From IMG/VR virus record IMGVR_UViG_2554235189_000004, positions 1 to 14,788 of that record: a DNA stretch of 14,788 nucleotides. The stretch is one strand, 5' to 3'. Below the pieces are notes generated by a model that did not search any database, was not told where the DNA came from, and saw only the letters and a program-made list of their open reading frames with translations. Below are positions 6,525 through 7,091 of this stretch, in pieces. The position numbers and the translations under genes were made by a program. The DNA comes from a virus (taxonomy: Duplodnaviria; Heunggongvirae; Uroviricota; Caudoviricetes). The stretch's first letter is position 1. Every line of letters begins with the position of its first letter.

Positions 6525-7091
6525 ATGGCTAAACCAGCGCGAAGACGATGTAACCGTAAAAGAGAAGATTTAACTGTTAAAAGGATATTTGAGTTACTAA
6601 GTTTCGATAAATCTACCGGGGTATTTAGATGGAAAGTTCCCACTCAGGGAAGGATAGCATTAAATAGTGTTGCTGGAACTTTTGATTCCAACGGTTATTC
6701 AATGATCATGATAGATGGGCGTAGATATAAAACTCACGTCTTAGTTTTTTACATAACTCATAATCGTTGGCCTGCTGGTCAAATTGACCACGTTAATGGA
6801 ATTAGGACCGACAATAGGCCAGAAAATTTAAGAGAATGCCTGCCAATAGAAAATTCAAGAAATATAAGGATCCGAAAGAATAGCAAATCAGGTTGCAGAG
6901 GGGTTACTTGGCACAAACGACAGAAAAAATGGAATGTTAGGCTAGGATTCCATGGAAAGAGTAAACACTTCGGATGCTTTGATGATCTGGAGTTAGCGGT
7001 ACTAGTTGCTGAAGAAGCCCGAGATAAGTATTACGGTGATTTTTCCGGCAACGAAAGGAGCACTTATGCGAATCTATCGAAGGAAATGTAA
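6525..7091 (+). CDS. HNH endonuclease with AP2 DNA-binding domain (homing-endonuclease-like)
   Basis: RBS 'ggaggaagaagg' then ATG 6525; HNH motif …[20 protein letters not shown]…; AP2-like …[49 protein letters not shown]…. The first codons MAKPARRRC are those I recall for lambda NinG. Confidence 0.8.

Follow-up and report, generated by a model that had tools for sequence, protein, structure and literature searches.

A foreign cassette with an HNH-AP2 endonuclease gene at the 5′ end of ninG in lambdoid prophages, a candidate homing element

How a nuclease gene can open with the first codons of another gene, and whether it got there by its own activity, is the question raised by a locus in IMG/VR virus record IMGVR_UViG_2554235189_000004 (Caudoviricetes). 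The stretch analyzed, positions 1 to 14,788 of that record, is referred to as the window throughout. It carries an open reading frame (ORF) for an HNH-AP2 endonuclease that begins with the residues MAKPARRRC and overlaps the start of the recombination gene ninG (rap). An earlier note, made from the sequence alone, had proposed that a free-standing homing endonuclease gene invaded ninG and left a reshaped junction. The explanation that we consider the most probable, with considerable reserve, is that positions 6554 to 7149 are a mobile cassette whose core is a homing endonuclease gene of the free-standing HNH(HNN)-AP2 kind, placed inside the 5′ end of ninG. The parts of this explanation differ in strength. 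The structural account of the cassette and its junctions is close to certain, and active homing, judged from the sequence, has somewhat better than even chances.

The junctions were set by anchored, ungapped comparison of the window with lambda and phage 434, which was used instead of a MAFFT alignment that put the lambda 5′ end wrongly on the new ninG start. From 6512 to 6553, the window is identical to lambda except for two mismatches at 6522 to 6523, directly before the ATG, and the match stops at GATGTAA/CCGT (6553/6554). Identity to lambda returns at 7150, at TGTGGAACCAAG, at a C of the NinG protein; this is lambda position 42525. Codons 11 to 32 of the lambda-type ninG are replaced by the cassette, and the 64 nt of the alleles without the HNH gene (empty alleles) have a counterpart only about 50% identical in the allele with the gene (occupied allele). 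The G+C content drops to 0.39 across the HNH-specific part and to 0.27 across the new ninG 5′ end, against 0.52 and 0.49 in the flanking lambda-type pieces. Lacking a start of its own, the HNH ORF uses the ribosome-binding site, the ATG, and the first nine codons of ninG; the ninG-type initiation region now drives the HNH ORF, and the remnant ninG codons are fused to it in frame. The coordinates of all features are collected in Table 1.

TABLE 1 Features of the ninG locus and its surroundings in the window
Feature	Coordinates	Strand	Basis or remark
ninG-type translation initiation region, GAGGAAGAAG (Shine-Dalgarno site and spacer)	6512..6524	+	As in lambda, 434, and ninF-HNH prophages; mismatches at 6522-6523
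Remnant 5′ end of the recipient lambda-type ninG (ATG, codons 2-9, and 2 nt; MAKPARRRC)	6525..6553	+	29/29 nt identical to lambda 42432-42460
HNH-AP2 endonuclease ORF, 188 aa, intact	6525..7091	+	RefSeq WP_001108084.1 in identical genomes
Foreign AT-rich cassette, 596 nt	6554..7149	+	Substitutes for 64 nt of lambda-type ninG (lambda 42461-42524)
HNH_3 catalytic core, residues 68-107, WP..DH.NG..DNR..NLRE	6726..6845	+	Pfam stretch and invariant columns
AP2-like predicted DNA-binding domain, residues 123-171	6891..7037	+	Weak Pfam AP2 match, model fold
Shine-Dalgarno site AAAGGAG for the new ninG start	7054..7060	+	Read from the sequence; ends 5 nt before ATG 7066
Foreign recoded 5′ module of ninG, 28 codons	7066..7149	+	G+C 27%, ~50% DNA identity to lambda; first 26 nt overlap the HNH ORF
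Chimeric ninG (rap), 200 aa	7066..7668	+	Pfam NinG, 1e-82; PGAP 'recombination protein NinG'
Lambda/434-type ninG body, recipient sequence	7150..7668	+	11/519 nt differ from phage 434, 15/519 from lambda
AT-rich ORF, 590 aa	4171-5943	-	No Pfam match; only PHROG 9230 'unknown function'

Several statements of the earlier note were borne out by this comparison. Lambda NinG (NC_001416, 42429 to 43043) does start with MAKPARRRC, save for one extra annotated Met; ninG restarts at 7066 with a divergent N terminus and becomes lambda-like from 7150; and the end of the HNH ORF, with its stop codon at 7089 to 7091, overlaps the new ninG start by 26 nt (7066 to 7091). The exact junction, for which the note had called for an alignment with lambdoid ninG genes, is the one given above. 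The proposed invasion of ninG by a free-standing homing gene stands in its structural part, on the occurrence of both alleles, the foreign G+C content, relatives without MAKPARRRC, and an invariant cassette, and fails as a pure insertion, as 596 nt replace 64 nt. A junction reshaped in place had also been proposed. This part had to be given up, as the divergent N terminus is a complete, family-typical NinG start that was brought in with the HNH gene.

The last point is borne out by the residues of the replacement start. The AAAGGAG site sits within the 3′ end of the HNH ORF. In an alignment of NinG from six phages, the new N terminus keeps all invariant residues (R5, R6, C8, K9, C11, F15, P17, N21, Q22, and C25), and it is thus the true NinG N terminus of a diverged relative and not a reshaped lambda sequence. 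Its C-K-x-C spacing is short, as in ES18 and SE16, its MR start is like that of phage Emek, and the Pfam NinG (PF05766) match of the chimeric protein covers profile positions 5 to 192 of 193. Because the cassette supplies a Shine-Dalgarno site, an ATG, and 28 codons that restore a complete NinG, ninG was not destroyed. When the 30-aa new N terminus was searched by tblastn in the phage collection, the best other NinG N termini were just 53 to 58% identical, which indicates an unsampled donor.

The protein encoded by the HNH ORF is already labeled 'HNH endonuclease' (WP_001108084.1) by the Prokaryotic Genome Annotation Pipeline (PGAP). It matches Pfam HNH_3 (PF13392) at residues 68 to 107 with 42.7 bits versus a cut-off of 24.8 (E = 4e-11) and PHROG 99 'HNH endonuclease' at 1e-71. 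Across 13 relatives, the columns P83, D88, H89, N101, L102, R103, and N110 are invariant; the boxes WP, DH, DNR, NLRE, and EN are all present, and there are no CX2C zinc dyads. These boxes match the HNN-AP2 type described for Xanthomonas and T5 phages (PMC2248197). For the C-terminal part, the Pfam AP2 (PF00847) match at residues 123 to 171 stays below the threshold (22.2 bits versus a cut-off of 33.3, E = 2e-4), and a sequence search of the PDB returned WRI1 alone (E = 0.19). In the AlphaFold model, with an overall predicted local distance difference test score (pLDDT) of 86.7, this part forms strands 127 to 130, 135 to 142, and 145 to 152 and the helix 155 to 173. It has the AP2 fold by superposition on AtERF1 (1gcc) in Foldseek (template modeling score TMt 0.67, root-mean-square deviation [rmsd] 1.3 Å, 51 columns), and further AP2 matches were TEM1 (7et4; rmsd 1.1 to 1.2 Å, 48 columns) and 7wq5. 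The first Foldseek match in the PDB was I-HmuI (1u3e), followed by the AP2 domains of WRI1, TEM1, and AtERF1, all with weak E-values; I-HmuI was matched with probability 1.0 but with E = 0.012 and a template modeling score of 0.32 to 0.34 over 91 aligned columns. The low-confidence ends of the model, residues 1 to 10 (pLDDT 58) and residues 178 to 188 (below 50), are exactly the borrowed head and the tail overlapping ninG. A terminase-associated HNH protein of the HK97 gp74 kind was rejected as a candidate, since the combination of HNH_3 with AP2 does not fit and the gene lies in the nin region instead of at cos.

The identity of homologs to the HNH protein is 99% or higher or else no higher than 47%, and the sole relative in between, found in a search of 5.8 billion proteins, is a 104-aa fragment from Escherichia coli (89% identity over 46% of the query). 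The nearest HNH relatives, 44 to 47% identical, are free-standing genes of virulent phages. The distant relatives as a group come from Jersey-like phages of Salmonella, from T5-like phages, and from a metagenomic contig of T7-like character. The two metagenomic relatives that come closest, one in a T7-like context and one on a short contig, show no link to ninG. Aligned relatives start a few residues before the motif LT..RL..LL.YDP.TGVFRW, and MAKPARRRC is found in none of them. Most finish near ..GEFA, so the last 11 residues of the protein in the window, which overlap the new ninG, are an extension.

Presence and absence of the HNH gene alternate at one homologous site in collinear genomes. 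The empty order ninF-ninG is found in lambda, in phage 434, and in a defective prophage of E. coli O157:H7 EC4115, the chromosome of which also holds an occupied allele elsewhere. Occupied loci read NinB-NinE-NinF-HNH-NinG-NinH-NinI-Q in E. coli P393-F10, the same with an additional methyltransferase gene in E. coli O111:H8 02-3334, NinF-HNH-[IS3]-NinG in E. coli PK8241, and NinB-NinD-NinE-NinX-NinF-HNH-NinG-NinH in the P22-like nin region of a prophage of Salmonella Infantis CP150140 (L074:3001-4144). Upstream of about position 6511, the window is unrelated to lambda ninF. In P393-F10 and PK8241, compared with lambda base by base, the ninF flank continues unbroken into the GATGTAA/CCGT junction, and the junction sequence of the Salmonella Infantis prophage is identical. 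With the ninF flank leading into this junction in O111:H8 02-3334 as well, the arrangement is no product of chance.

Among 5,426 complete E. coli genomes, the HNH body was found in 538 (564 places) and the divergent ninG 5′ module likewise in 538 (569 places). The carriers, about 10% of the complete genomes, belong mostly to the enterohemorrhagic E. coli (EHEC) serotypes O157, O111, O26, and O145, and their cassettes are 99 to 100% identical. The ninG 5′ module without the HNH gene was not found in the 5,426 genomes, the sole apparent exception, Z1323CEC0014, being an ordinary occupied allele with an insertion sequence (IS) element, IS2. An uninterrupted lambda-type ninG 5′ region of 171 nt is present in 970 genomes, a set that overlaps the carriers of the HNH gene, as in EC4115. 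The exact HNH protein occurs on at least 1,000 contigs, and 57 near-identical loci are found in IMG/VR. In the phage collection, the cassette was detected only in SH2026Stx1 and AU6Stx1, both Shiga toxin 1 (Stx1) phages with two accessions each, that is, in 4 of 422 ninG-matching records.

The diversity of the locus was compared in a sample of 54 loci (39 haplotypes) from IMG/VR and genomes. Averaged over all pairs, the HNH gene differs by 0.5% and the new ninG 5′ module by 0.2% (0 among ninF-type loci), whereas the ninF flank differs by about 10%, ninG from 7150 to 7300 by 2.4%, and the ninG 3′ end by 6 to 8%. Both junctions are identical in all intact copies. In one occupied locus (L014), the ninG body and the downstream 150 nt equal those of the HNH-less phage 434, and another (L041) is separated from lambda by 4 nt over the ninG body and by 2 nt across the 150 nt that follow. 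Between the window and the Salmonella copy, 6 of 625 positions in the cassette are different, compared with 26 of 519 in the ninG body; the near identity of this copy shows that the cassette crossed the genus boundary. A near-invariant cassette in 434-like, lambda-like, and P22-like backgrounds points to an entry that is recent relative to the divergence of these backgrounds. That both junctions are shared by all copies indicates a single origin of the chimeric join, after which the cassette was spread by recombination in the flanks.

The HNH ORF was intact in 60 of the 63 copies examined; of the others, one is frameshifted (L063), one is interrupted at its 3′ end (PK8241, L004:3592-4805) by an IS3-family element that separates ninG from the HNH gene, and one is ended by a contig edge (L066). 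In Z1323CEC0014 (L006:1261-2489), the HNH ORF is intact and the IS2 lies within the recoded ninG 5′ module, truncating ninG. In an ungapped comparison of 60 copies, 12 synonymous and 13 nonsynonymous polymorphic sites were counted. The frequent polymorphisms are mostly synonymous, and the nonsynonymous ones are mostly singletons, including P83T and N101S at invariant residues. This pattern suggests purifying selection on the sequence with occasional prophage decay.

A single founding event would account for these observations, in which a lambda-type ninG was probably broken and then repaired. An AT-rich phage, as yet unsampled, that carried the HNH gene directly before its own ninG would have served as the template, and the join would have been homologous on the right side, at a conserved ninG stretch, and illegitimate on the left side, at GATGTAA/CCGT. 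From then on, delayed-early transcription of the nin genes, which coincides with expression of the phage recombination functions, would also yield the nuclease, and the nuclease would cut or nick empty lambda-type ninG in or near the 64 nt that are absent from its own allele. Repair of the break from the occupied allele would copy the cassette in, and the recoded 5′ module would give the occupied allele immunity. Both the cleavage and the homing are what we infer from sequence comparisons. More tentatively, and as a possibility that we hold to be rather doubtful in this full form, the cassette may be a self-contained 'start-swap' unit, which depends for expression on the ribosome site and first codons of its target and, from within its 3′ end, keeps that target functional by providing it with another ribosome site and start codon and with an N-terminal module recoded to escape cleavage; if the nuclease is active at induction, the break would be an exchange hotspot.

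Two further features may be traces of the founding join. The position in the new ninG that coincides with the HNH stop codon is homologous to the left junction of the lambda-type copy, so that 6554 to 7091 is bracketed by two homologous ninG 5′ ends; this bracketing may be such a trace or may be due to chance. An imperfect two-copy direct repeat of 20/21 nt spans the left junction at 6543 to 6583 (AGACGATGTAACCGTAAAAG / AGAAGATTTAACTGTTAAAAG; Tandem Repeats Finder score 54), and microhomology or a template switch during the founding join may have produced it, or it may be a chance product of A-rich sequence.

The same data bear on whether the cassette moves by its own activity or is carried along. 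The HNH gene could have arrived once and now be an inactive or non-homing passenger of a cassette spread by ordinary recombination in the lambdoid nin region, which we regard as the less likely course, though a serious one. Single genomes holding both empty and occupied alleles agree with it, and so do the decaying copies, the mosaicism at the same loci (ninH- or ninI-type genes downstream, ninF or a moron upstream), and a diversity of the ninG body that does not rise smoothly with distance from the cassette. Passive carriage is harder to reconcile with an ORF intact in nearly all copies, with conserved catalytic residues and mostly synonymous common polymorphisms. Further points against it are that the presumed target region is recoded and directly adjoins the nuclease gene, as self-immunity would require, and the presence of the cassette at below 1.4% divergence in lambda-like, 434-like, and P22-like nin backgrounds of both E. 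coli and Salmonella. Several points weigh against homing all the same. NinG is dispensable in the laboratory, as known from the nin5 deletion, and a dispensable gene is an unusual target for a homing endonuclease. The step in diversity at the cassette could be produced by any recently introduced module that spreads by ordinary lambdoid recombination, and some copies are decaying, as seen from the frameshift, the IS3 and IS2 insertions, and the singletons P83T and N101S. The coexistence of empty and occupied alleles in EC4115 is expected if the nin genes are silent in lysogens and equally fits an inactive nuclease. Finally, a donor phage with the HNH gene beside a fully divergent ninG was not found by blastn of 7030 to 7170 in phages, by tblastn, or in the search of 5.8 billion proteins, IMG/VR, and GTDB; the distant blastn search returned the two Stx1 phages only, and the GTDB genome search returned one unrelated 39% match.

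Two further explanations concern the origin of the arrangement. The order ninF-HNH-ninG might be the old state, from which lambda, 434, and others deleted the HNH gene. On formal grounds, the sequence between the two homologous ninG 5′ copies could have been deleted, as removal of 6554 to 7091 leaves an in-frame NinG, but this deletion would leave the AT-rich NinG segment in place, and empty alleles show a different, lambda-type sequence; as such a deletion cannot yield the lambda sequence, this explanation was rejected as highly improbable. The foreign G+C content and the almost nil diversity of the cassette, the predominance of empty alleles in lambdoid and P22-like phages (only the two Stx1 phages being occupied in the phage collection), and the HNH relatives without a NinG-derived start speak against it as well. 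Alternatively, 6554 to 7091 might be a self-splicing intron with its ORF fused to exon 1 and NinG made from the spliced mRNA, given that the ORF is in frame with the upstream 'exon' and that 6553 and 7092 join in frame into a plausible NinG N terminus. The insert is filled by the ORF, leaving no space for a ribozyme core, and the ninG that follows is provided with a strong Shine-Dalgarno site and an ATG of its own; when 6200 to 7400 was scanned permissively with Rfam on both strands (E ≤ 1), 0 matches to any family were obtained, including group I and II introns. These three results led us to reject an intron, which retains scarcely any probability, and the N terminus encoded downstream, MR..RR.CK, moreover resembles that of the intact NinG of Salmonella phage Emek.

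With the cassette read as a probable homing element, its closest counterparts are the free-standing HNH(HNN)-AP2 genes of T5 (heg), of the Xanthomonas phages Xp10, OP1, and Xop411, of RB49 and RB43, and of Jersey-like Salmonella phages, with which it shares the two-domain architecture and the boxes. Identity is 40 to 44% to the copies of Jersey-like and related E. coli phages, about 43% to T5-like copies, and 44% to the metagenomic relative in the T7-like context. Presence/absence variation and decay have been described for the HNN-AP2 family (PMC2248197). Unlike these genes of virulent phages, the gene described here resides in a temperate lambdoid prophage, lies within a coding gene and not between genes, has lost its own start in favor of the initiation region and nine codons of its target, and carries a replacement 5′ end for that target. 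The N-terminal half of the model has its best match among solved structures in I-HmuI, the intron-encoded nicking HNH enzyme of Bacillus phage SPO1 (1U3E), a site-specific His-Me finger nuclease. I-HmuI differs in its sequence (18% identity), in its C-terminal DNA-binding region, and in being encoded by an intron, whereas no intron was detected here.

The T4 endonucleases SegF, SegG, and MobE are encoded by genes that adjoin their targets, cut the allele without the gene, and have protective polymorphisms copied along during repair. The recoded 84 nt at 7066 to 7149 resemble such a co-converted, protective tract. Intronless homing with co-conversion of flanking markers has been described (PMC2993671). 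In contrast to the window, the T4 free-standing genes are intergenic with their own starts, the Seg proteins are GIY-YIG enzymes, and homing was demonstrated there, while for the cassette it is a probable reading of the sequence. A free-standing HNH gene within a conserved coding gene whose function is kept is found in Aeromonas phage Aeh1, where mobE is inserted in nrdA. The insertion in ninG is similar in that the function of the target is not abolished, and it differs from the Aeh1 nrdA, which is split into two polypeptides that reassemble, in that NinG stays a single polypeptide with a replaced and re-initiated 5′ end.

Homing endonuclease genes have been well studied in the virulent phages T4, T5, and SPO1 and, to our knowledge, little described in temperate lambdoid phages; no description of the ninG-HNH junction was found in the open literature. 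The HNH-AP2 family and the logic of homing are already well known, and the gene is routinely annotated automatically. The architecture is a natural example of a selfish gene entering a coding sequence without killing it, by capture of the initiation signals and replacement of the start. Within the recombination (nin) region, the cassette closely precedes the gene for the Q antiterminator, and some phages have stx1 downstream of it as well. If the nuclease is active at prophage induction, it would produce a break about 1 to 2 kb upstream of Q and, in Stx1 phages such as SH2026Stx1 and AU6Stx1, of stx, and such a break would be a hotspot driving the exchange of late-regulatory and toxin-flanking modules between coresident EHEC prophages. 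An active nuclease would thus be a concrete source of targeted breaks and gene conversion between coinduced prophages and one mechanism of the mosaicism of Shiga toxin phages. If it is inactive, the cassette would be a relic in a good state of preservation that could still serve to mark recombination tracts.

The genes around the cassette vary among carriers. The AT-rich 590-aa ORF of the window stands where ninF lies, between ninE and the HNH gene, in O111:H8 02-3334 and P393-F10; from this position, it resembles a moron that replaced ninF, and it is present in about half of the haplotypes with the HNH gene. Between the 590-aa and HNH genes, the hexanucleotide TATTTC is repeated 11.8 times with 96% match in noncoding sequence (6260 to 6330), and a promoter-like site was noted on the minus strand at 6073 to 6044. 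The repeat could be a slippage-prone tract near the promoter of the 590-aa gene. Downstream, ninH is missing from the window, and ninG is followed, as in 434, by a gene for a NinI-type Ser/Thr phosphatase (7665 to 8336, plus strand) and by the gene for a 162-aa Q-family antiterminator (8327 to 8815, plus strand). Other prophages with the HNH gene have ninH at this place, which indicates mosaic exchange directly downstream of the cassette. Just downstream of Q in P393-F10 (L007:5353-5508) is a second, different 'HNH endonuclease' gene (WP_000919140.1). In the window, a tRNA gene with the anticodon CAT follows downstream of Q (9129 to 9204, plus strand); it was called Met by ARAGORN and tRNA-Ile by PGAP in the identical genome 2013C-4991, and it is probably a lysidine-type Ile tRNA, as in Stx-like phages.

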